Positions 40,619-52,780 of a stretch of DNA of 64,000 bases are shown one piece after another; within the stretch, counting starts at the first letter, position 1, and each line of letters starts with the position of its first letter. Made by a program: the position numbers and the translations under genes. The stretch lies in the NCBI GenBank assembly GCA_963676565.1, contig OY781089.1, positions 2,560,001 through 2,624,000 on the forward strand, given 5' to 3'. Origin of the DNA: Halarcobacter sp. (GTDB lineage: Bacteria > Campylobacterota > Campylobacteria > Campylobacterales > Arcobacteraceae). The notes under the pieces were generated by a model. The model was not told where the DNA came from, ran no database searches, and saw only the letters and a program-made list of their open reading frames with translations.

Positions 40619-40957
40619 ATGGATTTTAACTTATTAACAAATGAAGATATTATAAAAGAACTTGGTAAAAACTATGAAGAGTTAAGACTTCAAAAAAGAC
40701 TTTCTGATGATGATGTTCATAAAAAAGGTGGTGTTAGTATTGATGCCATCCAAAGACTAAAAAATGGTTCTAATATAAACTTATTAAATTTTATAAAGAT
40801 TTTAAGAGGACTTGGAGAGTTAGACAAGCTTCAAAAACTACTTGAAGTAAAAGAGGAGTTTAGTATTCAAGAAAAAGTAAAAAACACTAAACCCAAAAGA
40901 ATATTCAAATCTAAAAAAGATACCAATAGTGACTTTATTTGGGGAGAAGATAAATGA
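40619..40957 (+). CDS. XRE/HTH antitoxin (HipB-like)
   Basis: HTH RLQKRLS....KKGGVS..AIQRL.NG; stop overlaps the hipA start. Confidence 0.8.
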   Translation: MDFNLLTNEDIIKELGKNYEELRLQKRLSDDDVHKKGGVSIDAIQRLKNGSNINLLNFIKILRGLGELDKLQKLLEVKEEFSIQEKVKNTKPKRIFKSKKDTNSDFIWGEDK

Positions 40958-42273
40958 GTAAAATAGTTGAAGTAAAATTATGGGGTACAACTATTGGATA
41001 TCTTGGTTACCCAAAAGATTCAAATATAGCGCAATTTGAGTATGACAAAAACTTTATGAAATCTAATATTTCACCCTCACCTTTACTGATGAATTATCCA
41101 CCTGACAAGTTTTATTTTGAAGATATTAGTTTTAGAACTTTTAAAGGAGTAGCTGGAGTTTTTGCGGATTCTTTGCCAGATAAATATGGGAATCAACTAA
41201 TCGATCAATTTATGGCAGAGAAAAAAATCCCCAAAGAAGATATAACAACTCTAGATAGATTATTATATGTGGGGAAAAGAAGTATTGGAGCTTTGGAATA
41301 TCATCCTTGTGAATTTGAAGATGATTTTGAAAAAAGTGCAAAAGCTTTAGATATATCTTTATTGTCTCAACTAGCTGAATTAGTAATTACAAAAAAAGAC
41401 AAACTAAATGATAAATTAAAAGATTCAAAAACAAAAAAAGAGGCACTTGATTTGATTAGAGTTGGTTCTAGCGCAGGAGGAGCAAGGGCAAAAGCACTTA
41501 TTGCAAAAGATGAAGATAAAAAGAATATATATATTGATGGAACAAACTTATATGAAGGGAACTATTCTTATTGGCTTTTAAAATTTGATTCATCTGCAAA
41601 TCAAGATAGGGATTCAAAAGACCCAAAAGGGATGACTAGAGTTGAATATATCTATTCCTTGTTTGCTAAAGAGTGTGAGATAGATATTCCTGAAACCTCA
41701 TATTTAGAAATAGATGATGATTTTCATTTTATGATAAAAAGATTTGATAGAGTTGTAGAAAATAAAAAAACCTCAAAACTACACTATATATCTTGGGCTG
41801 GACTATCTCATTATGATAGAGATACAACAGGGGCATACTCATACGAACAACTAATCTTAAACTTACGTCAACTAAACTTTGGACAAGAAGAGATTACAGA
41901 AATTTTTAAAAGAGCTGTTTTTAATATAGTAGGAAGAAACCAAGATGACCACACAAAAAACTTTGGATTTTTGATGAATAAAAAAGGAGAATGGAGTTTA
42001 TCCCCTGCTTTTGATATGACCTACTCTTTTGACCCATCTGGGACTTGGACGAAAGTTCATCAAATAAGATTAAATAAAAAGCAAGATAATTTTACAAAAG
42101 AAGATATTATTGCATTTGGGAAATATTGTAATCTAACTCAAATACAATCAACAAAAATCCTTGAAAAAACTATTGGGATATTTAAAAAATTTGAAAAACT
42201 TGCAGATGAATATAAGGTACCAATAAAAGTGAAAGATATCATCTCTAAAAATTTGAGAAGAGATTTAATTTAG
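40954..42273 (+). CDS. hipA: HipA-family serine/threonine kinase toxin
   Basis: HipA N-terminal FADSLPD.YG, SAGGARAK, KRFDR, NQDDHTKNF, LSPAFD. Confidence 0.9.
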   Translation: MSKIVEVKLWGTTIGYLGYPKDSNIAQFEYDKNFMKSNISPSPLLMNYPPDKFYFEDISFRTFKGVAGVFADSLPDKYGNQLIDQFMAEKKIPKEDITTLDRLLYVGKRSIGALEYHPCEFEDDFEKSAKALDISLLSQLAELVITKKDKLNDKLKDSKTKKEALDLIRVGSSAGGARAKALIAKDEDKKNIYIDGTNLYEGNYSYWLLKFDSSANQDRDSKDPKGMTRVEYIYSLFAKECEIDIPETSYLEIDDDFHFMIKRFDRVVENKKTSKLHYISWAGLSHYDRDTTGAYSYEQLILNLRQLNFGQEEITEIFKRAVFNIVGRNQDDHTKNFGFLMNKKGEWSLSPAFDMTYSFDPSGTWTKVHQIRLNKKQDNFTKEDIIAFGKYCNLTQIQSTKILEKTIGIFKKFEKLADEYKVPIKVKDIISKNLRRDLI

Positions 42274-42870
42274 TACCTTATTTATATTAGATAAAGAAGC
42301 AACCTCTCCTGGCATTAGACTATCAATATGAATCTCACCAATTCTAATTCGAACAAGTCTTAATGTAGGGAATCCAACAGCAGCAGTCATTTTTCGAATC
42401 TGACGTTTCTTTCCTTCACAAATCGTAATAGATATCCAACTAGTAGGTCCATGTTTTGGATGACGAATATTTTTTCCTCGAGGTGGTAAATCTGGCTCAC
42501 CATCAATTGCAAATGCTTTACAAGGAAGAGTTAAATATTTGCTCCCACTTACAGTAATTTCAACACCCTTTTGGAGATTAGAAATTGCATCCTCTGTAAT
42601 CACACCATCAACTTGCACATAGTACTCTTTTTCTATACTTTTATTTCTAACTTTATGACTTGTCATACCATCAGTTGTAAGTAATAATAAACCTTCTGAG
42701 TCATGGTCTAACCTTCCAATAGCCATAGTATCCTCAGGAAAATCATAAAAGTCACCTAATAAGCTTTTATTTTTCATTTTTTCTTGCTTGAATTGACTTA
42801 AACACCCATATGGTTTAAATATTTTAAAGTGCTGGTGAGTTTGTTCTGATGTAGAGTTTTCATTTGGCAT
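42265..42870 (-). CDS. Pseudouridine synthase, RsuA/RluE family
   Basis: KPYG.LSQF, GRLDHDSEGLLLLTTDG, EGKKRQIRKMTAAVGFPTLRLVR. Confidence 0.88.
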   Translation of the reverse strand: MPNENSTSEQTHQHFKIFKPYGCLSQFKQEKMKNKSLLGDFYDFPEDTMAIGRLDHDSEGLLLLTTDGMTSHKVRNKSIEKEYYVQVDGVITEDAISNLQKGVEITVSGSKYLTLPCKAFAIDGEPDLPPRGKNIRHPKHGPTSWISITICEGKKRQIRKMTAAVGFPTLRLVRIRIGEIHIDSLMPGEVASLSNINKVLN

Positions 42871-42926: not shown

Positions 42927-44207
42927 TTAATCTTTAATATCTTTTTTGTATACCTTTCCATTGAATTTTAATATAGATTTTTGGTTCGTTGTTATTACTT
43001 TAGCATCACATTCCCCATTCTTATTAACTTCATTTTTGGTTTCTGTAACCTTGCTTTTTATCAAAATATTAAAAAAGCCATTTGATTTTTGGTTTGACAT
43101 AATTAAAGTGTTTTTAGTATCTGTAAATTCACCAGAACAGTTACCGTTCCATTCACCAATGGCGTTCATCACGGAGTATTTATCAAGAATTTTTTTTAGT
43201 CTGTTGCCTGATTTGATAAAAAGAGACAAGGTTTCGCTTGTATAAGGATTAACTCTTGACATTCCCTGATAGCGTACTTTAACACCAAAAGCTCGAATCT
43301 TTTTATTAATAAAGTATCGCGCTGTATCTATACTGATTTTTCTAAGCATTATGGCATCTGAAACCCATTGGTTCGTTTGACTGCTTTCAAAGAATTTTTG
43401 TATTATTTTTCCAGTACGATTATCGGCAATAACAATATGACTGTTGAGGGCAAAATATTGTATTCCCTCTTCTACAATCTCTGGTATAACTATAATCACT
43501 TCATTTGGAGTTTGAGGGTTGGCTTTTGATACAATCAAATCTGTTTTTACTAATAACGGATCAAGACCTAATTCTTTTAAAACAGATAAAACTAATGTGA
43601 AATTTGATAAGGTGTCATTTAGTCTCTTTGAATTTGTCCTGTCAATCGTACCATCAAAATTAATAACAAATTCCTGTACTTCTATTTTTTTGACCAAATC
43701 CCAAGAAGTATGGTGGCTTGTGATAGCACGTTCACTTATTCTTGATTTTATTTGAGTCAGACCTTCAGCTATCTCGTCATAGACAATCCGCTGATAATCA
43801 ATAACATTGCCTTTTAAATCATAGTTTATCAAGGTAGATTCCATTTCATATTCACCCAATTTATAGGTAACCACCACCGTATAGAAGTTTTGAGACAAAG
43901 TTACTTTGTAAGAACTCACTGCTTTATACTTAGATTTTTCTTGATAGAAATCAGGATATATAGTTTCAATCTTCAAAGCGTGACTATCAATGGATTTAAA
44001 GTCAGCAACGTCAATAAAATCATCAAAGTTTGTGGTATCAACTACTGGCAGTTTTCTCTCTTTTAGAGTATTTATCACGTCTTTAAAATCAATAGATTTC
44101 TCTACTTGTTCTATTGCACCTTCCACTTGCTTTTCATCTTGTTTTTCTTGTCCAAAAGAATAAGAGAACAACAGCGATATAAGTATAAAAATTTGCATAT
44201 GTTTCAT
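42927..44207 (-). CDS. Secreted hypothetical protein (C-terminal half resembles PA3715-like family)
   Basis: Signal peptide; SDA....I.IDTA.Y......RAFG..V......S..NPY..E.LSL, GEW...C.GEF. Confidence 0.6.
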   Translation of the reverse strand: MKHMQIFILISLLFSYSFGQEKQDEKQVEGAIEQVEKSIDFKDVINTLKERKLPVVDTTNFDDFIDVADFKSIDSHALKIETIYPDFYQEKSKYKAVSSYKVTLSQNFYTVVVTYKLGEYEMESTLINYDLKGNVIDYQRIVYDEIAEGLTQIKSRISERAITSHHTSWDLVKKIEVQEFVINFDGTIDRTNSKRLNDTLSNFTLVLSVLKELGLDPLLVKTDLIVSKANPQTPNEVIIVIPEIVEEGIQYFALNSHIVIADNRTGKIIQKFFESSQTNQWVSDAIMLRKISIDTARYFINKKIRAFGVKVRYQGMSRVNPYTSETLSLFIKSGNRLKKILDKYSVMNAIGEWNGNCSGEFTDTKNTLIMSNQKSNGFFNILIKSKVTETKNEVNKNGECDAKVITTNQKSILKFNGKVYKKDIKD

Positions 44208-44209
44208 GA

Positions 44210-44596
44210 TCAGATCCAGTCTAAAGTTTTTTCAAGAAAATAGTGTAAGAAAGCTAAAATAACTAATATTAACAACATAGAAATTCCACGTTTTAAGAAC
44301 ATATACTTAGATAAGTTACATTTTTTTTTCAGATAAAAGAGATCAAAAAGTATAAATAGTATAGCTAAAATGGCTCCTATAATACCTCCCACAAAAAACA
44401 CTCCAAAAAAAAGCATTTTGGAATAAATAAAAGATAAGAAATTTGTTTCTTCTGGCGTTGGACCTGCAATCAAGTATGAAAGTAAATACATATAGCCAAT
44501 ACCTAGAATCAAGGCAATGACTGTCCAAAGGGCATACTCTAAAATGAGTTTTCCCACTTTATTGGATTGAACAACGTTTTTTTCGTTCGTCTTCAT
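44210..44596 (-). CDS. Hypothetical membrane protein
   Basis: Three TM segments; co-oriented block. Confidence 0.65.
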   Translation of the reverse strand: MKTNEKNVVQSNKVGKLILEYALWTVIALILGIGYMYLLSYLIAGPTPEETNFLSFIYSKMLFFGVFFVGGIIGAILAILFILFDLFYLKKKCNLSKYMFLKRGISMLLILVILAFLHYFLEKTLDWI

Positions 44597-46145
44597 TGGG
44601 TATTCCTTTCATTTTGTCTAACAAGTCAGGATCGCTAAAGTCTAACTCTTGCTCAATATTGCAAATATAGATAGATGAATTTTTTTCATTACTTTCTTTT
44701 ACCCTAAAAAGGGTATTGGTTAATACCCAATGAGTATTTTTAAAAGTAATGTAGTGGTTAGCCTCGTTAAGTCCGCGATCAGGAAATGTTGTTTGAATTA
44801 AAAAGCCATTTTCTTCTGCTAATACATCAACAATTTGATTTCCACCATCTTCTGAAAAATTGGTACTTTTTAAAGCAAATCGGTATGCTCCATCTTTATT
44901 GATAAACAGTAATAACTCATCTTCTTGGTATGGAATTGAGCTTACTACTTTGTCCAAAGCATAGTCATTGTTGATATCAATGTCTCTAACAAAATAATTT
45001 TTATTGTTCAAGTAGTATGATATATCTTTACCTATAGGATTTTTCTTATTCTCTTCCACATTAAATTCATTTGCAAACAAATCATATATAATATGCATTT
45101 TGTGATTATTAAAGCTATGCGTAAACTTTTTGTCAAATTGTGGATGTTGTCCATCAAAGAGAAAAAACAAAACTGACTTTGCTTCTTTAAATTCCAAGGT
45201 ATTGATTAGATTATATCGCTGTTTTTTCTTGATATACTTTATAAATTTATCTTGAAAATAATTAACGGCATCAGCTTGCCATTTACCATTTTTTGCAATA
45301 TTAATGAGTTTTTTTTCATAGTTCTTATACTTTTCATTTGAAATCAACTCAAAAAAATAAGCAATATAAGCATTGCTTTCATTGTAAAGTTTGCTGGGGG
45401 AATCGTTGTACTCATTCCATCCAAAATAACTTACAAATTCTTGAAAACTATCAGGAAAGAGATTTAGAAAAAGTACCTCATTTTTTGTGGAGAACGCCAG
45501 CTTTATTTGAGCTATAGAAATACTGTTATCTAGCGGTTCTTCAACATCAGAAATTAAATCATTGTTATTGAACTTGCGATTGGGTTTATTAATCAAATTT
45601 CCCTCATTGAAGAAACTAAACTTTCCACACTCTAAAGTGACATTGACTTTACAGTTAGAATAATCAAATTCTGCCAACTTATACTTACTATACATACCTA
45701 ATTCTTCAGTGACCAAGCCACCTAGATCTTCTTCGTTTTCTAAAAAATATGCTGTACCTTCATCTTGAAAAACACTAAAAGGAAAAGCCTTAGAATACTT
45801 ATAAAATAAAATTGAATCTTCTTTTTGATAAGCTAGTTTCTTGCCTGTTGAAAACCCTTTTTTCAAGTGTTCTGTTACTTTTTCCCTAATTACTTGATGA
45901 AGAATACTCTGATCCTTTTCAGGATACTTTACTAAATAAAGATTAGGATAGACCTCGGATTGTATAAACATCATATTCTTAAAAAAGAAGTGGTTAATAA
46001 TCTGTACAGTAAGACCAATAACAAATAAAGCCAAAGCCACTCGTGACCTTTCTTTATTTTGTAAAATCCACTTTATTAATCTAATGGCAAAAAATAGTAA
46101 GCCAATACTCAATAGAAGAAACAAAATGATGAGGATTATTTCCAT
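44559..46145 (-). CDS. Membrane-anchored hypothetical protein
   Basis: Two N-terminal TM helices, large soluble domain with a DINND (FG-GAP/EF-like) motif. Confidence 0.65.
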   Translation of the reverse strand: MEIILIILFLLLSIGLLFFAIRLIKWILQNKERSRVALALFVIGLTVQIINHFFFKNMMFIQSEVYPNLYLVKYPEKDQSILHQVIREKVTEHLKKGFSTGKKLAYQKEDSILFYKYSKAFPFSVFQDEGTAYFLENEEDLGGLVTEELGMYSKYKLAEFDYSNCKVNVTLECGKFSFFNEGNLINKPNRKFNNNDLISDVEEPLDNSISIAQIKLAFSTKNEVLFLNLFPDSFQEFVSYFGWNEYNDSPSKLYNESNAYIAYFFELISNEKYKNYEKKLINIAKNGKWQADAVNYFQDKFIKYIKKKQRYNLINTLEFKEAKSVLFFLFDGQHPQFDKKFTHSFNNHKMHIIYDLFANEFNVEENKKNPIGKDISYYLNNKNYFVRDIDINNDYALDKVVSSIPYQEDELLLFINKDGAYRFALKSTNFSEDGGNQIVDVLAEENGFLIQTTFPDRGLNEANHYITFKNTHWVLTNTLFRVKESNEKNSSIYICNIEQELDFSDPDLLDKMKGIPNEDERKKRCSIQ

Positions 46146-46179
46146 GAAGTTACATCCTTAGGGCACTGCAATCAATAAG

Positions 46180-46563
46180 CTAATACCATTTAGTCAAATA
46201 CTTGATACGAGCATTTGTCATTTCAATTTCGCACTCAAGTCTGGCTTCATTGCGTTGCATACCCCCACTTTGAAGTACATAAAATGCATCACAATTTTTT
46301 TTCTTGAATTCAAGCCAGCTACGTTGGCTAATAATCAAGCTTTGTTTCAATTCATTAGCATCAACTAAGGCTGCATCGGGTAATTTTCCCGTGTTTATGC
46401 TACTCATAATAGCTTTATAAATACGATTCAATTCAGCATCAGATGACTCTTGTTCAAGCTGTAGCTCACATAAAGAAGTAGGCAGACCACAACGTTCATC
46501 AATATCTTGTGCAAACAATTGGAAAGTCGTACAATAAAAAAATAGAACCAAGAACCTAATCAT
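46180..46563 (-). CDS. Lysozyme-inhibitor LprI (DUF1311)-like secreted protein; first gene after attC remnant
   Basis: Signal peptide; D.ELN..YK, L..SQRSWL.F....C, C...MT..R. Confidence 0.75.
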   Translation of the reverse strand: MIRFLVLFFYCTTFQLFAQDIDERCGLPTSLCELQLEQESSDAELNRIYKAIMSSINTGKLPDAALVDANELKQSLIISQRSWLEFKKKNCDAFYVLQSGGMQRNEARLECEIEMTNARIKYLTKWY

Positions 46564-46585
46564 TTAACTTTCCTTTTATTAAAAT

Positions 46586-46626
46586 ATATAACGTTTAAGT
46601 TGAAAAACATTTAGTAATAGTTAATA
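46586..46626 (-). mobile_element. Degenerate attC remnant (cassette 6)
   Basis: Minus strand TATTAAC..ttttcaacttAAAC-GTTATAT shares the AAAC-GTT right end with attC1/2/5 but has no central stem. Confidence 0.5.
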
Positions 46627-46636
46627 ATAAATATTT

Positions 46637-47050
46637 TTATTTAACTCCACATTTACTATCAAGTATTTTAGCTAAACTATCTCTTTTTTTATCTGCTTTC
46701 ATCAGTCTTTGATACTCTGATTCATCATTATTCTTTTTAGCTTCAACTTTTGCCATAAAAGATTGATACGAATATAATGAATCATACATAAATAATTTTC
46801 CATCGATTTTATCTATCTCTTTTGCTGCACATTTACAATATTCTAATTCTTTTTCATTTTTGGCTTGTTTTTCACAAGTGATTTTAAACATCTGTTTTGA
46901 TTTTTTAATTTGCCCACTTTTTAGCATCTGTTCATACATCTCTTGATTTGCTTTAACTTGATAAAACTCTTCAATATTCATAGATAAAATATTGTTAGCA
47001 AAACATTGTAATGATAAAAAAGATATAAGAATTAAATATTTGATGCCCAT
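46637..47050 (-). CDS. Gene cassette 6: secreted hypothetical protein
   Basis: Signal peptide, C..YCKC motif; lies between attC5 and the attC remnant. Confidence 0.7.
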   Translation of the reverse strand: MGIKYLILISFLSLQCFANNILSMNIEEFYQVKANQEMYEQMLKSGQIKKSKQMFKITCEKQAKNEKELEYCKCAAKEIDKIDGKLFMYDSLYSYQSFMAKVEAKKNNDESEYQRLMKADKKRDSLAKILDSKCGVK

Positions 47051-47219
47051 TCATTTCCTTTTATTTTTTAGTTTATTTAACAATCATAGTATCTTTTTGA
47101 GACTTAAATAATACTCTTCAAAATAAAGCTTGTAAATATATTAAATAATTATTAATATTACTCCAAAATGAAGTTAATTAAAATCATTTTCTGCAATAAT
47201 TTTAAACTATTCTTTTGTA

Positions 47220-47278
47220 GTTTAACGTTTGAAATAAGCCAATAAATTTCCCGCATGGTAATTTATTGGCTGTTATAT
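47220..47278 (-). mobile_element. attC5 (blaOXA cassette), apparently internally deleted
   Basis: ATATAAC-AGCCAATAAATTACC-atgcg-GGAAATTTATTGGCT-tatttcaaac-GTTAAAC. R'' contains the bla stop and is complementary to the cassette start GTTATAT. Confidence 0.8.
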
Positions 47279-48028
47279 AATATTCTTAAATTTTAAAGCT
47301 TCCATTACAATTTGTTTTCTATATTTTAACTCTTCTTTTTTAATATCAGCATTTAAGGCAAAAAACCAAATGTTATTTTTAGTTTCAACATATCCTACAT
47401 ACCATCCTATTTTACCTGACCATCCTGATTTGGCTTTTATTATATAATCTTTTGTTTTTTCAACAGTTAATATTTTTTTTGTAATATCGATATATTTTTG
47501 TTGAAAGGGTAAATCATCTTTATATAATTTTTTGAGAAACTCTATTTGTTCAACTGCTGATATTTGTAGATCACCTTCTAGCCAAAAAGTAGATACATCT
47601 AAACCAGTTTTTTCATTACCGTAATCTATTTTTTTTAACCAATCTAAATATTTTTCATTTCCTATTTTTTTTGCAAATCTTTGATAACACCAAACGCATG
47701 ACATTGCAATAGCACTTTGTAAAGTTTGATCTTTATTCCATGGTTCATAAAATCTTTTTTTACCATCCCACTTAATAATTTCATATTCGTCTTTTATCAC
47801 TCTTTCTTCTAAAACAATAAGTGTATTTGGTATTTTAAAAGTTGATGCTGGAATATATCTTTTTATGGCTCTTGTATCGTTATGTATAAACTCTTCATTA
47901 TTTAGTGATGACAAAACAATTGTTCCATTGATTTTTGTTTTTTTAAAAATGTTTTCTAACTCTTTATCTTGTGCTAGTGCAAAATTGAACAAAATGTTTA
48001 TCAGTATAATTATTTTTACATTGTTCAT
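47273..48028 (-). CDS. blaOXA: Gene cassette 5: class D beta-lactamase (OXA family)
   Basis: PASTFK, SCV, YGN, FWLEG, KSG motifs; signal peptide from MNNVK; RBS AAGGGG right after GTTATAT. Confidence 0.93.
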   Translation of the reverse strand: MNNVKIIILINILFNFALAQDKELENIFKKTKINGTIVLSSLNNEEFIHNDTRAIKRYIPASTFKIPNTLIVLEERVIKDEYEIIKWDGKKRFYEPWNKDQTLQSAIAMSCVWCYQRFAKKIGNEKYLDWLKKIDYGNEKTGLDVSTFWLEGDLQISAVEQIEFLKKLYKDDLPFQQKYIDITKKILTVEKTKDYIIKAKSGWSGKIGWYVGYVETKNNIWFFALNADIKKEELKYRKQIVMEALKFKNII

Positions 48029-48040
48029 TTTTCCCCTTTT

Positions 48041-48166
48041 ATATAACGCCCAGTTAAGGGGTGAAGCACGCAATGACCAAGCCTCTGCATAGCACATCAA
48101 CATCGAAATCCAACGCATAGCAAAAATGCCACGCGTGCTGAATCCCTCTTGAACTGTTTGTTATGG
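48041..48166 (-). mobile_element. attC4, long Vibrio-superintegron-type repeat (126 bp)
   Basis: CCATAAC-AAACAGTTCAAGAGGGATTCAGCACGCGTGGC..GCGTGCTTCACCCCTTAACTGGGC-GTTATAT. R'' is complementary to the cassette start GTTATGG. Confidence 0.9.
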
Positions 48167-48643
48167 CGCTCCACTCAACGTTAGCTCTTGTATATCAACT
48201 TGGTCTACTTCCCTGCCTAATATTAGCTTGTACTCGACTAAACGATGAACTGGGATAACTGGCAACTCGATACCTTGATAATCTTTAATAACTGATTCTG
48301 AGAAGTAAATTTCAAGCTGGTGCCAAGAGCCATCTTGACATGATTGTATCTTAGTATGTTCAGACAAACCGATTTCAATTTTTTGATTTTGGTAAACCAA
48401 TTGGAAATACTCTAGATCCCAACCATATTCGGCATAATGAGTTAACGGTTTGGATATGTATTTTGCTACATGCGATAGCACTTTGTCTGCGTCTGAGTTT
48501 CGAATATAAAGATCTATATCTGCGATTTCCCGACTTCCACCATGAATAGTTGCCGCTAATCCACCTACTATTTGATACTCCACAACCTCTGCATCTAAGA
48601 TCTCTTTGAGCCACTGCAAGGCTACTTTAACTTTATCACTCAT
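48161..48643 (-). CDS. Gene cassette 4: Pol-beta-like nucleotidyltransferase family protein
   Basis: GGLAA..HG..R..ADIDL motif; stop codon inside R''; more GC-rich than host genes. Confidence 0.75.
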   Translation of the reverse strand: MSDKVKVALQWLKEILDAEVVEYQIVGGLAATIHGGSREIADIDLYIRNSDADKVLSHVAKYISKPLTHYAEYGWDLEYFQLVYQNQKIEIGLSEHTKIQSCQDGSWHQLEIYFSESVIKDYQGIELPVIPVHRLVEYKLILGREVDQVDIQELTLSGAP

Positions 48644-48673
48644 CTAGTTCCTTTAGCTGAATTTTGCCTTGCG

Positions 48674-48733
48674 CCATAACGCCCCACACATGGGCGCAGC
48701 TTTGCTGCGTCCTTGTGCTGTGGCTTGTTAAGG
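48674..48733 (-). mobile_element. attC3, short GC-rich 59-be-type site (60 bp)
   Basis: CCTTAAC-AAGCC-ACAGCACAAGGACGCAGC-aaa-GCTGCGCCCATGTGTGGGGC-GTTATGG. R'' is complementary to the cassette start GTTAAGG. Confidence 0.88.
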
Positions 48734-49069
48734 GTGCGCATCAGGTTTTGCAACAACCTTAAGACGATTTGTTTTAACCCAAACACCTGCATCCTCCTCT
48801 TTGCCACCATATATAATTTGAGAGAATCCATCATACTCACTGTAAATACCTACTCCATCTTTTGGAATTATAAATTTCCCTTTAATCGAGCATGATTCGT
48901 GCGGTGCTGAATAAAATTGTGCTCGCCCTTCACCAACAACTTCACCCATCCATACCCTGTGCCAGTATTTGGCTTTTGCTTTAACATCCAGAGCTTTGCA
49001 ATCTATGTCTTCATTGCTATAGGCATTAAAAGATAAAACTAATGTGAAAAGCGTAATGATCATTCTCAT
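48728..49069 (-). CDS. Gene cassette 3: secreted hypothetical protein (SH3-like)
   Basis: Signal peptide; FYSAP...C....FII..D....Y..Y..F..I.Y.....WV...RL; stop in R''. Confidence 0.7.
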   Translation of the reverse strand: MRMIITLFTLVLSFNAYSNEDIDCKALDVKAKAKYWHRVWMGEVVGEGRAQFYSAPHESCSIKGKFIIPKDGVGIYSEYDGFSQIIYGGKEEDAGVWVKTNRLKVVAKPDAHP

Positions 49070-49076
49070 GCTAAAC

Positions 49077-49146
49077 CCTTAACGTTTGAGTCGAGAAATA
49101 TTTGAGCCGCTAAGGTCAAATATTTCTCTCCAATGATTTGTTATAT
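49077..49146 (-). mobile_element. attC2, host-type (70 bp)
   Basis: ATATAAC-AAATC-ATTGGAGAGAAATATTTGACC-ttagcg-GCTCAAATATTTCTCGACTCAAAC-GTTAAGG. Confidence 0.85.
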
Positions 49147-49550
49147 ACTAGTTTACTATTAATAATTTGGATTATTCCTTCAACATTATCCTTAAGTATA
49201 ATAGCTCGTTCAATAAATAAAGATACATCAGAATCAATTATATTTTCATCATCAATTAAAGTATTTTCAATTAGACCGGAAAAGTATGAGTGTATTTCAT
49301 GTATTAAACAATTTCTTTGATCTTTTAACATATTTAAAGCAGGAACAACATTCTTCAATGAATCATGTTTTTTTAATTTAAATATTAATCCACCTAATGT
49401 GCTTTCAATAAACTGTGAATTTTCATTATTTTCATCAAGAAATTTTTTAATTAAGCTTTCTAATTTTCCAGTAATTAAAATGACACGACCAAGTTCCATA
49501 CAAAATCTATCATTAGTATATAAAAGATTATAAAAATGTTTATTACTCAT
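49116..49550 (-). CDS. Gene cassette 2: hypothetical protein with HEPN-like RxxxxH motif
   Basis: TLGGLI..RNCLIH; the ORF reads into attC2 (..YNKSLERNI*); AGGAG RBS after GTTATGC. Confidence 0.68.
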   Translation of the reverse strand: MSNKHFYNLLYTNDRFCMELGRVILITGKLESLIKKFLDENNENSQFIESTLGGLIFKLKKHDSLKNVVPALNMLKDQRNCLIHEIHSYFSGLIENTLIDDENIIDSDVSLFIERAIILKDNVEGIIQIINSKLVYNKSLERNI

Positions 49551-49563
49551 TCAAACTCCTTAT

Positions 49564-49634
49564 GCATAACGTTTAAGGAGAGCAATATTTGACACAAGGG
49601 CGGGTCAAATATTGGTTCCTACGTTTTGTTAGTC
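49564..49634 (-). mobile_element. attC1, host-type (71 bp)
   Basis: GACTAAC-AAAAC-GTAGGAAC-CAATATTTGAC-ccgcccttgt-GTCAAATATTG-CTCTCCTTAAAC-GTTATGC. R'' contains the stop and is complementary to GTTAGTC at 50125-50119. Confidence 0.88.
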
Positions 49635-50105
49635 ATTTAGTTGACTCGCTGATTCTTCTATCGTCTTGATAGGGTCTTCCATAAATTTACAGGCTTTTGA
49701 AACTTTTAAATCTTCAATTATCTCAGATAAGTTTGGTTGTAGAACTTTACTAGACTCTTCAGCATATAACAAACACTTTTCTTCATCTGCTATTGTAATG
49801 AAATTTTCCAAAATTTTTATATTGTCTTGTGCTGGAGAAAATTTAAGAACAACAGCTTCAAATTTTTCATCTGTTTTATAAATCTGTATTTGAGAACCCC
49901 AGTTATCGTCTGATTTAAATTCTTCAACATCACCCCAACTATTATTAATTGGTAATAAAGAACGTATTGAATTCATGAAATTTGTTGAGGGGTTTGAAAA
50001 CTCTTCCCAAGCAAAATAATCATCTAGCGCACTTTGAAAATCAGTTTTATGCTTTTCTACAAACTCTTTAGGAATGATTTCAATATTATATTGAAAAATT
50101 GCCAT
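49629..50105 (-). CDS. Gene cassette 1: hypothetical protein
   Basis: 158-aa ORF between GTTAGTC entry site and attC1. Confidence 0.72.
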   Translation of the reverse strand: MAIFQYNIEIIPKEFVEKHKTDFQSALDDYFAWEEFSNPSTNFMNSIRSLLPINNSWGDVEEFKSDDNWGSQIQIYKTDEKFEAVVLKFSPAQDNIKILENFITIADEEKCLLYAEESSKVLQPNLSEIIEDLKVSKACKFMEDPIKTIEESASQLND

Positions 50106-50118
50106 TATTTATCCTAGT

Positions 50119-50201
50119 GACTAACTATTTATTGAATATAAATTATATAAATAAAGTACTTAAATACACTTATTTATTATATATTTATAATAATTATATA
50201 A
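50119..50201 (-). mobile_element. attI-like entry site of the cassette array
   Basis: G^TTAGTC core preceded by a non-palindromic AT-rich tract with direct repeats (TATTTATT x2, AATTATATAA x2) instead of an attC. Confidence 0.55.
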
Positions 50202-50323
50202 AATAATATTATTAGATATATATTGTGAAGAATAAATTTATTAAAGTATACTTCCAATAACTTAAAAGAGCTTGTCACATTAGTTTGGAGTGATTACCTA
50301 ACTTTGTCATAAATAGGGGGGGG

Positions 50324-50350
50324 GTAAGGACGTTTGTCCTTACTTTTTTT
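50324..50350. terminator. Hairpin GTAAGGAC-gttt-GTCCTTAC with T-run on + strand, preceded by a G-run
   Basis: Perfect 8-bp stem; abuts the stop of the 50349..51098 gene. Confidence 0.6.
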
Positions 50351-51098
50351 ATGAGTATAATTGAATAAACTTATTTTCTTGAAACTCCATTAAAATGCAT
50401 TTTGAAACTTTTAATTTTTCTAGTAAATCTTCTGGAGATATAGGTAAACAATTAAGATTTATTTTTTTAGTAACATTCATAATATTTATAAACTTTTTAT
50501 CTGTGGTTAAAAAATAATCTAATCCGTTCACTTCTGCACTCCATAAATGAAAAGCATCAGGTAGCTGTTTATCTGATAAACCTGAACATATCTCTTTAAA
50601 TCTTTCTATATTGTTAATAGATTTTTTTGTTAAGTTGGGATAACTACTAGTATTTCTTACTAAATTCTTTATATCAGCATTATTTAAAGAAAGCAAAAAT
50701 TTACAAAAGTCAATAACATTTTTGTTATCTATAAATTCAAGAAAATCCATACTTTGAAAGTAGCTTCTATCAATCGCTGGTTCAATAAATTTAATTGAGA
50801 CATTTTTTAAAAGATATCCTCTCTCTTCTAGGAAAGTTTTTTTCCAACCTTCAAATTTAACTTCATCATAAGAGAAGAAATGTATCTTATTCTCATAAAC
50901 TAAATTTACAATTGTTGGAATACACATAATTTGATTCCTTTTCCATTGATTATTATCATCTGGTAATGGTTTTCTAACATAGCCTAAAATATCATTAGTA
51001 AGTACTTGATTACCCCATTTAAGTGTTTTTTGAGAAATTTGATACTGTAATGTTTCACTTAAACTAAAAATACAATTATCTAAAAAAACTTTTATCAA
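50349..51098 (-). CDS. Hypothetical protein, PIN-like motifs
   Basis: VFLDNCI near the N-terminus and DAFHL..AE...LDYFLTTDKKF; TTG start after GAGG. Confidence 0.62.
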   Translation of the reverse strand: MIKVFLDNCIFSLSETLQYQISQKTLKWGNQVLTNDILGYVRKPLPDDNNQWKRNQIMCIPTIVNLVYENKIHFFSYDEVKFEGWKKTFLEERGYLLKNVSIKFIEPAIDRSYFQSMDFLEFIDNKNVIDFCKFLLSLNNADIKNLVRNTSSYPNLTKKSINNIERFKEICSGLSDKQLPDAFHLWSAEVNGLDYFLTTDKKFINIMNVTKKINLNCLPISPEDLLEKLKVSKCILMEFQENKFIQLYS

Positions 51099-51244: not shown

Positions 51245-52780
51245 TTATTCCCACTCGATTGTTGCTGGTGGCTTAGAAGAGATATCATATACCACTCTAT
51301 TAATCCCATCAACTTCGTTAATAATTCTTCTAGAAATAGTTTCTAATACATCATGAGGGATATGTGCAAATGTAGCTGTCATACCATCTGTTGCTTCTAC
51401 AATTCTAACACATACAGTATTGTCATAAGTTCTATTATCACCCATAACACCAACTGATTTTACATTTAGAAGTACTGTAAATGCTTGCCATGTTTTATCA
51501 TATAATCCAGTTGCATGTAAAACATCTAGCATGATAACATCTGCTTTTCTAAGTAATTCTAAATCAGGTTTATTAACATCTCCCATCACTCTAATAGCAA
51601 GTCCAGGACCAGGGAAAGGATGTCTACCAATCATATCTTTTGGAAGTCCAAGTTCAAGTCCTAAAAGTCTTACTTCATCTTTGAAGATTTCTCTTAAAGG
51701 TTCAATTAACTCAAAAGTCATCCAATCTGGAAGTCCACCAACATTGTGATGTGACTTGATAGTTTTAGAAGGTCCTTTAACTGAAACAGACTCAATAACA
51801 TCTGTATAAAGTGTACCTTGTGCTAAGAACTCAATACCATCGTGTTTTTTTGCTTCTTTATCAAATACTTCAATAAAAGTTTCACCGATAATTTTTCTTT
51901 TTCTTTCAGGATCAGTTACTCCAGCTAATCTTTCAAGGAATAGTTCACTTGCATCAGCAGTAATAAGATTCACACCTCTTGCTTTAAACATAGCTTCAAC
52001 TTGTTCTCTTTCATTTGCTCTTAATAAACCATTATCAACAAATACAGGAATAAGTTGGTCTCCAATAGCTTCAGCTAAAAGTGTTGCAACAACAGAAGAG
52101 TCAACTCCTCCACTTACACCACATAATACTTTTTTATCTCCAACTTGGTCTTGGATTTTTTTGATTTGTTCTTTTGCAAATGAACCCATGTTCCATGTTG
52201 ATTCACAACCACAAACATGTTTTGCAAAGTTTTTAAGAATCTTAGCACCTTCAGCTGAGTGATAAACTTCTGGGTGAAATTGAAATGCATAAATATTTTC
52301 ATCTTCTTTTGCAATTGCTGCAAATGGAGAGTTTTCACTTGTTCCAATAACTTCAAAACCTTCTGCTAATTTGTCAACTTTATCTCCATGTGACATCCAA
52401 ACAGTTTGTCCATCAGTTGTGTCTTTGAAAATCGCACACTCTTTTTCAAAAGTAAGTTTTGCTTTCCCGTATTCATGATGATCTGCAGGGATTACTGAAC
52501 CACCATAAAATTGAGAGATAAGTTGCATACCATAACAAATACCCAAGATTGGAAGTCCAAGATTAAAAATCTCTTCATCAGGGTGATATGCATCTTGTGC
52601 ATATACTGAAGCAGGTCCACCACTTAAAATAATACCTTTTGGAGTTCTAGCTAAAATATCTTCGATTCTTTCACTATATGGTACAATCTCAGAGTAAACA
52701 CCAGCTTCTCTTAATTTTCTTGCGATAATTTGTGTATATTGACTACCAAAATCTAATACAACTATTGGTACATGTTTCAT
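51245..52780 (-). CDS. guaA: GMP synthase (glutamine-hydrolysing)
   Basis: [41 protein letters not shown]. Confidence 0.97.

Follow-up and report, generated by a model that had tools for sequence, protein, structure and literature searches.

How does a gene cassette of a type at home in Vibrio come to lie in the chromosome of a bacterium from another phylum? The question is raised by cassette 4 of an integron cassette array in Halarcobacter sp. (Campylobacterota; Arcobacteraceae), which we analyzed within a stretch of 64,000 nucleotides, hereafter the window, corresponding to bases 2,560,001-2,624,000 of the single closed contig of 3,340,668 bp that makes up this genome (OY781089.1, assembly GCA_963676565.1). 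Seven cassettes form the array near guaA, behind an attI-like element, and cassette 4 (48047-48679, minus strand) pairs one open reading frame (ORF) with a 126-bp recombination site, attC4. Sedentary chromosomal integrons are usually thought of as holding cassettes that belong to the host clade and are marked by clade-specific attC sites, and exchange beyond the clade is mostly documented via clinical mobile integrons. A preliminary description of this stretch, drawn from its letters alone, had recognized the Vibrio chromosomal-integron repeat pattern in attC4 and proposed that a Campylobacterota integron system captures cassettes from marine Gammaproteobacteria.

Kinship and cargo of cassette 4

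To place the cassette we used a 1.1-kb BLAST query (47800-48900) against the loci that encode relatives of its ORF. The best matches lie in Vibrio and not in Campylobacterota, with 94.7% nucleotide identity over 641 bp in both Vibrio sp. YIC-376 and V. hepatarius HF70, and copies at 92-93% occur in Photobacterium salinisoli, Vibrio sp. ES.051, and a V. alginolyticus plasmid. Altogether, seven Vibrionaceae loci and one Oceanospirillum locus match the full cassette, and despite the longer query these alignments extend no further than the cassette borders, at 48041-48044 on one side and 48683-48686 on the other. On the V. alginolyticus plasmid (NZ_CP099958.1; 93.0% identity to 48043-48684 of the window) the copy sits within a run of short co-oriented ORFs.

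The recombination site taken by itself points the same way. It extends over 126 bp from R'' CCATAAC (48166-48160) to R' GTTATAT (48047-48041), with the end strings first reported for it, and the Vibrio repeat pattern is borne out by 95.2% identity (E 2e-46) to sites on a V. vulnificus plasmid with 40 places of this kind; sites on a V. cholerae plasmid match at 81%, and Vibrio supplies 119 of the 176 matching plasmid records. The two Vibrio genomes with the best cassette copies (G200 and G201) hold 51 and 21 matches to the attC4 family, with 20 of the latter 21 in one 17-kb stretch of a single contig, and family members in Vibrio arrays are roughly 120-129 bp long. This repeat type, which we take to be the one named VCR with its canonical consensus, is present as a single copy in the Halarcobacter genome.

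The ORF (48161-48643, minus strand) encodes a protein of 160 residues, labeled "MazG-related" in NCBI records, that shares 97% amino acid identity with a V. parahaemolyticus protein representing a 359-member cluster. A protein search returned 179 of 194 candidates at E <= 0.001, and of the 120 listed, all that carry a name belong to the marine Gammaproteobacteria, mostly Vibrio. Among species-representative genomes, all 32 loci with a relative of the ORF are gammaproteobacterial (Vibrio, Salinivibrio, Photobacterium, Oceanospirillum, Marinomonas, Billgrantia, Amphritea, and one "Bacterium sp."), a count that may omit records of the window's own genome, and the ORF was not found in the genomes of 183 other Arcobacteraceae species. 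In a maximum-likelihood tree of 33 ORF sequences, the window copy falls within a nine-row clade with 100/100 support whose other members are all Vibrionaceae. The Vibrio label changes nine times on this tree, which was rooted, as an assumption, on its three most distant rows.

Base composition sets the cassette apart from its surroundings as well. Cassettes 3 and 4 were said from the outset to be richer in GC than the host, and they stand at 41.7% and 40.9% against 28.4% for the genome and 23-34% per kb across the window, with a 200-nucleotide profile of 0.365-0.475 over 48000-49099. The cassette-4 ORF has a GC content of 38.7% and a third-position GC content (GC3) of 32.3%, close to the 38-40% and 32-36% of the Vibrio copies and unlike cassettes 1, 2, 5, and 6, whose GC3 is 12-20% (11.7% in cassette 2, 14.7% in cassette 5).

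Judged by these sequence comparisons, the Vibrio likeness of cassette 4 is far beyond chance, and the findings support its membership, ORF and attC together, in the Vibrionaceae chromosomal-integron cassette pool. With the cassettes of the sedentary Vibrio chromosomal integrons ("superintegrons", with VCR/VPR-type attC sites) it has in common the ORF family, the attC family, and 92-95% nucleotide identity over the whole cassette, as well as the promoterless arrangement of a ribosome-binding site and ORF followed by attC. Unlike them, it lies in a 28%-GC Campylobacterota chromosome as the sole site of its type, with no integrase and with short AT-rich attC sites for neighbors.

The cargo itself does not reach any Pfam or NCBIfam cut-off. 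The nearest family, PF10706 (aminoglycoside 2''-adenylyltransferase family), scored 15.1 bits with the window protein against a gathering cut-off of 21, and 25 of 27 homologues match it only at E values up to 1 (best 1.1e-05). A profile of the 27 homologues gave a weak match to TM1012 (E 0.0014), and TM1012 (2ewr) was also the best Foldseek match of the AlphaFold model (pLDDT 93.1), at a TM score of 0.82 and E 2.8e-11; LnuA, MenT1, and ANT(2'')-Ia came next, at 0.60-0.71. Residues G27 and G28 (a glycine pair) and D42 and D44 (DxD) are invariant across the 27 homologues, and from general knowledge of the pol-beta superfamily we take them to be catalytic. These results are consistent with a small pol-beta-type, TM1012-like predicted nucleotidyltransferase, whose predicted fold resembles those of TM1012 (a putative nucleotidyltransferase of Thermotoga maritima), LnuA, ANT(2'')-Ia, and MenT1 at sequence identities of 11-19%.

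The array and its integron platform at guaA

Across 46146-50190 every ORF lies on the minus strand, with attC-like sites between the ORFs. From the attI-like element outward, and then back toward guaA, the features are as follows; cassette borders were read from the sequence at the G|TT of each R', and those of cassettes 6 and 7 are less certain.

50125-50190, minus strand: attI-like element, head of the array
49570-50124, minus strand: cassette 1, host type; 158-residue ORF and 71-bp attC1 (49564-49634)
49083-49569, minus strand: cassette 2, host type; 144-residue ORF and 70-bp AT-rich attC2 (49077-49146)
48680-49082, minus strand: cassette 3, 403 bp, 41.7% GC; 113-residue ORF (48728-49069) and 60-bp GC-rich attC3 (48674-48733)
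48047-48679, minus strand: cassette 4, Vibrionaceae type, 633 bp, 40.9% GC; 160-residue ORF (48161-48643) and 126-bp attC4 (48041-48166)
47226-48046, minus strand: cassette 5, host type; class D (OXA-like) beta-lactamase ORF (47273-48028) and 59-bp attC5 (47220-47278)
46146-47225, minus strand: cassettes 6 and 7; 137-residue ORF and LprI-family ORF, attC6 decayed and the last site truncated
50349-51098, minus strand: 249-residue ORF with no family match, occupying the spot of intI in relatives
51245-52780: guaA, beyond the 249-residue ORF

The borders of cassette 4 are set by the G|TT in the R' of attC3 and in the R' of attC4, and the interval of 48041-48680 originally assigned to it was thus nearly exact. 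Within these borders lie one ORF and then an attC with the imperfect inverted repeats R''-L''...L'-R' and an R' of the form GTTRRRY, which is the anatomy of an integron cassette. Cassettes 1, 3, 4, and 5 each open with seven bases whose exact reverse complement forms the R'' of their own attC (GTTAGTC and GACTAAC in cassette 1, GTTATGG and CCATAAC in cassette 4), and this complementarity together with the G|TT borders is the footprint expected from cassette circularization and insertion at G|TT. Five attCs are clear, within 47220-49634. When the bottom strand was folded, the short sites formed clear hairpins with z scores of -2.8 to -6.6 relative to shuffled sequence (-6.64 for attC1, -4.2 for attC2, and -2.79 for attC3), and in attC4 the R''/L'' and L'/R' ends pair in the minimum-energy fold. 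The region of the decayed attC6 (46570-46640) was predicted to fold no better than shuffles, and searches of the window for Rfam families and tRNA genes returned none of either.

The neighbors of cassette 4 are of host type. Proteins around the array fall into 90% clusters with named members from "Arcobacter sp.", "Halarcobacter sp.", and "Arcobacter arenosus". The attC5 and attC1/attC2-type sites, 59-71 bp long, are AT-rich, unlike attC4, and host-type attCs recur at 84-97% identity in many places across the 24 other genomes of the genus. Host cassettes 1, 5, 6, and 7 each recur singly, at 77-96% amino acid identity, in different genus genomes and in other contexts; the cassette 1 ORF, for instance, has a 92% identical relative in G006 that adjoins a broken intI. 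Collectively, identity, repeat family, distribution, tree, and composition support the earlier proposal of a marine gammaproteobacterial cassette among Campylobacterota host-type cassettes. The accompanying picture of GC-rich cassettes interleaved with AT-rich ones holds for the flanking cassettes and their different attCs but not for cassettes 3 and 4, which adjoin each other.

Cassette 3, as GC-rich as cassette 4, is probably a second foreign cassette. Its 113-residue protein looks secreted and is nearly an orphan, with a search yielding two clusters including its own and a sole outside relative at 55% identity; neither the cassette nor its 60-bp attC3 had a DNA match in the plasmid collection. 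On the other side, the cassette 5 ORF matches NF012161 (class D beta-lactamase) at 275.6 bits against a cut-off of 250, as well as the Pfam Transpeptidase family, and its translation has the S-T-F-K and K-S-G motifs; no cut-off of a named OXA subfamily in NCBIfam was reached. A copy in G003 is 92% identical, with the match ending at the cassette borders, and more distant copies (68-77%) occur in G017, G002, G016, G006, G009, and G008.

The relatives show what kind of platform this array occupies. An IntI (395-408 bits, cut-off 265) is present in 7 of 25 genus genomes, and intI fragments or copies with internal stops occur in at least five more. In G024 the order is guaA, intI (convergent with guaA), a 66-bp element 94% identical to window 50122-50187, and cassettes. 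The IntI of G024 aligns with VchIntIA (2a3v) end to end over residues 1-317 (E 1.3e-81; about 40% identity by hand count). The last ~35 nucleotides at the 3' end of the attI-like element are conserved adjoining intI in all five aligned intI-bearing genomes of the seven available, with similarity stopping at G|TT. We read 50125-50190 as a putative attI of this integron lineage from this conserved position and endpoint, an identification that is not secure because the element is multi-copy in G016. Between the element and the 249-residue ORF, 50317-50350 holds a ten-G run, then a perfect 8-bp hairpin, then a T-run.

The locus is variable within the genus. In G014, guaA is followed by the 249-residue ORF and then by the pseudouridine synthase gene found at 42265-42870 in the window, with no array between, and by this arrangement ~42930-50197 of the window is an insertion relative to G014. 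The part of it between cassette 7 and the pseudouridine synthase gene (42927-46145) holds ORFs of 528, 128, and 426 residues, the last of the PA3715 family; GC3 is 27% for the 528- and 426-residue ORFs, and the block of cassette 7 with the 528- and 128-residue ORFs recurs in G017 at 93-96% amino acid identity. This region may consist of large cassettes or form a separate island. Just outside the array, on the plus strand at 40619-42273, a gene for a HipB-like helix-turn-helix protein precedes a HipA-family kinase gene (HipA_C 1.7e-42), the two constituting a toxin-antitoxin pair.

The array is now a CALIN, an attC cluster without integron integrase (Cury et al. 2016, PMC4889954), as it has at least two attCs, co-oriented cassettes, and no intI anywhere in the genome, the features from which this classification was made. 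In that paper, recognizable intI pseudogenes lie near only 15 of 279 CALINs; the present array differs in having a traceable origin, with relatives that carry intI at the homologous guaA locus and an attI-like site that has been kept. At least two more attC/attI-like clusters or single sites without integrase are present in the same genome, with further host-type attC or attI-like sites at 160737-164401 and 2659039-2659107 of its contig (G000:C1).

Routes into the array

We consider it very probable that a Vibrionaceae cassette came in with foreign DNA, that an integron integrase inserted it at G|TT into this lineage's guaA integron, and that intI was lost later. In such a sequence of events, cassette 4 would have been made and maintained as a promoterless cassette in Vibrionaceae chromosomal integrons and their plasmid-borne offshoots, and foreign DNA would have brought it into an Arcobacteraceae cell. 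There an integron integrase would have recombined it, at G|TT in an attC or attI site, into the chromosomal integron near guaA, where its gene may be expressed. The recipient would have belonged to an integron lineage with a full-length IntI related to Vibrio IntIA that normally holds AT-rich cassettes with 59-71-bp attCs, and in this genome the integrase gene would since have been lost, leaving the array frozen as a CALIN. As this genome has no intI, we infer the catalyst of insertion from the relatives with intI at the same locus.

A number of observations weigh against this history. Cassette 4 is fourth from the attI-like site and not first, a position that calls for either three subsequent insertions or an attC x attC event, which is rarer. 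The best TIGR02249 match in the genome reaches 50.4 bits against a cut-off of 265, and a tblastn search with a relative's IntI revealed only generic recombinase C-termini and no intI remnant. In G016, three extra attI-like copies lie 2 kb apart and far from intI (L066 2574-2637, 4661-4726, and 6575-6639), each a few to ~500 nucleotides before the next ORF of at least 70 residues, and these are either secondary attI-like sites or a second attC class. The predicted single-strand fold of attC4 is no more stable than those of shuffles (z -0.10 and -0.67), a result that we count as neutral, and a promoter and terminator scan found 12 promoter-like sites where 13.0 were expected, with no enrichment for a cassette promoter. 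The nearest sampled Vibrio copies differ by ~5%, and no donor was identified among them. Lastly, bridging the cassette 5/4 junction required 31 letters, and the contigs from the read runs reach only 25 there.

The last point bears on whether Vibrio contamination was simply joined into an Arcobacter chromosome by the assembler, which we regard as largely refuted and scarcely probable. In read run X15, which holds 0.99 of the sampled words and is possibly from the source isolate, the region stands at depth 80 on both sides of and across the cassette, without differences. Host-type contigs of this run reach the Vibrio-type site from both sides: a 13.3-kb AT-rich contig ends at 48072, 25 nucleotides into attC4, a 93-nucleotide contig spans 48048-48140, and a 3.7-kb contig covers cassettes 4 to 1 from 48139 to beyond 49700. 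In run X16, from another study, a contig covering 48466-48784 crosses the cassette 4/3 junction with two differences. Moreover, each join lies precisely at G|TT and its R'' and R' agree, another species of the genus (G002, below) shows the same layout, and the genome is a single closed contig; the chimeric assembly that the preliminary description had itself named as a danger is thus not what the reads indicate. In favor of an artefact, X15 contains extra Vibrio-type attC contigs absent from the assembly and its contigs break inside attC4, a break that occurs because the run holds those other attC4-like contigs. One of them, 443 bp long, has a depth of 80.3 and differs by nine positions and a gap, others have depths of 171, 188, and 49.5, all have flanks unlike those of attC4, and the summed depth over 48048-48169 rises to 1367. 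They may stem from a replicon that was left out of the assembly and bears Vibrio-type cassettes, from a sister strain, or from a contaminant. Two further runs from metagenomes of salt marsh and other origins, X1 with 0.82 of the words and X2 with 0.64, gave matching pieces of only 18-64 nucleotides, from which we draw no conclusion on habitat or presence.

The same extra contigs, the 443-bp one at a depth so near the window's own 80 although the assembly holds a single copy, lend some weight to a capture in trans after intI had been lost, in which a plasmid or other replicon, still or formerly present in the strain, would have supplied a Vibrio-type integron whose integrase recombined attC x attC to place cassette 4 in a chromosomal array already without intI. 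A genome without intI, the mid-array position of cassette 4, and the presence of the same cassette on a V. alginolyticus plasmid all fit such a route, and traffic in trans has been proposed for CALINs by Cury et al. (2016, PMC4889954). Nonetheless, we hold it to be improbable, for the contigs could come from a sister strain or contaminant, no integrase was seen on them as far as they can be read, and the relatives show that intI was once at the locus, which suffices. Somewhat less unlikely, though still a minority view, is an arrival at second hand, with another Arcobacteraceae lineage having captured the cassette and a larger block of the array then moving by homologous recombination between related arrays. 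In the organism behind X16 (organism B), cassettes 2, 3, and 4 are about 99% identical to those here and most of cassette 5 has no cover, which we do not take as absence, and the recurrence of host cassettes in other contexts likewise speaks for exchange between arrays; the contigs of organism B have a depth of just 3-5, however, and this route alters the last step only and is compatible with a cross-phylum origin.

A reversed direction, or a common pool, in which the cassette arose in Arcobacteraceae or a third taxon and then spread to Vibrionaceae, draws on the poor rooting of cassette trees and on the wide movement among marine Gammaproteobacteria that the Vibrio label changes express. Against it, the attC type is a multi-copy house repeat of Vibrio arrays and single-copy here, the ORF occurs in none of the other 183 Arcobacteraceae species, the composition matches the Vibrio copies, and traffic of Arcobacter-type attCs into Vibrionaceae is barely visible. 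This last point comes from a search of 301 Vibrionaceae genomes with short queries and three candidates scored per genome, such that its negatives mean "not found" and not "absent": host-type attC2 was found in none of the 301 and the attC5 type gave one weak 25-nucleotide match, while the same queries match dozens of sites within the Arcobacter-like genus. We consider such a reversal highly implausible, and insertion by an integron integrase, with intI lost afterward, remains the most likely history.

Recurrence in Arcobacteraceae and cross-phylum cassette flow

Cassette 4 has counterparts elsewhere in the family. We surveyed 184 Arcobacteraceae species genomes including this one, scoring two candidates per genome, and found Vibrio-type attCs (77-81% identity) in 4 of the 183 others: G002, G181 (two sites), G173, and G182. 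G002, of the same genus, carries a cassette for a 182-residue AAA-ATPase in which 551 bp show 90.2% identity to a V. campbellii plasmid; its attC is of Vibrio type, matching V. parahaemolyticus sites at 93%, and the cassette follows immediately on a host-type attC, with R''/R' matching. In G181 a GNAT cassette is 85.7% identical to a V. alginolyticus plasmid and forms a 40%-GC island in flanks of 19-27% GC, and in G173 a stretch is 81.5% identical to a V. parahaemolyticus plasmid. Together with the sparse results of the reverse search, these cases raise the possibility, which we rate as less likely than not, that Arcobacteraceae chromosomal integrons draw repeatedly and apparently one-way on the Vibrionaceae pool, which would make the marine cassette pool a cross-phylum one and Vibrio arrays its net exporters. 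Arrays without intI may in addition be loaded in trans by the integrases of incoming plasmids, at which the unassembled Vibrio-type attC contigs of X15 hint.

The elements of this process are familiar. Campylobacterota appear among the integron-bearing phyla in the review of Ghaly et al. (2021, PMC8618304), and such integrons share with the lineage of the present array an IntI-type integrase, a putative attI, and attC cassettes on the chromosome of Arcobacter-like bacteria; the passage that lists them does not mention Vibrio-type cassettes in their arrays. Cassette sources can be traced by attC type, as in a second study (Ghaly et al. 2021, PMC8352920), where Vibrionales-type attCs accompany qnrVC1, blaP3, and dfrA6 on mobile integrons, and cassette transfer is argued to follow shared environment rather than phylogeny. 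Like the cases presented there, cassette 4 is marked outside the Vibrionales by a Vibrionales-type attC; the recipients in those cases are mobile (class 1-type) integrons of Proteobacteria, whereas here a chromosomal array of another phylum is the recipient, and the gene received is not among the known resistance genes. The 11 taxa modeled in that study do not include Campylobacterota. A full-text search, which covered few subscription journals and no supplements, found no paper on Vibrio-type cassettes in chromosomal arrays of Arcobacteraceae or other Campylobacterota. With integrons in Campylobacterota, tracing by attC, and CALINs already known, the finding is a clean and recurrent new instance of a known process.

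Its value lies in the directness of the case. A Vibrio cassette ~95% identical to its relatives and with exact borders, lodged in the chromosomal array of another phylum, is an example of natural cross-phylum cassette transfer, and it raises the tractable question of whether the IntI of Arcobacteraceae recombines VCR-type attCs. The class D beta-lactamase gene carried as a cassette suggests that the arrays of marine Arcobacteraceae are both recipients and reservoirs of cassettes. Taken with the three further Arcobacteraceae species, cassette 4 offers direct natural evidence for the habitat-following cassette flow argued for by Ghaly et al. (PMC8352920), with a hint of its direction.

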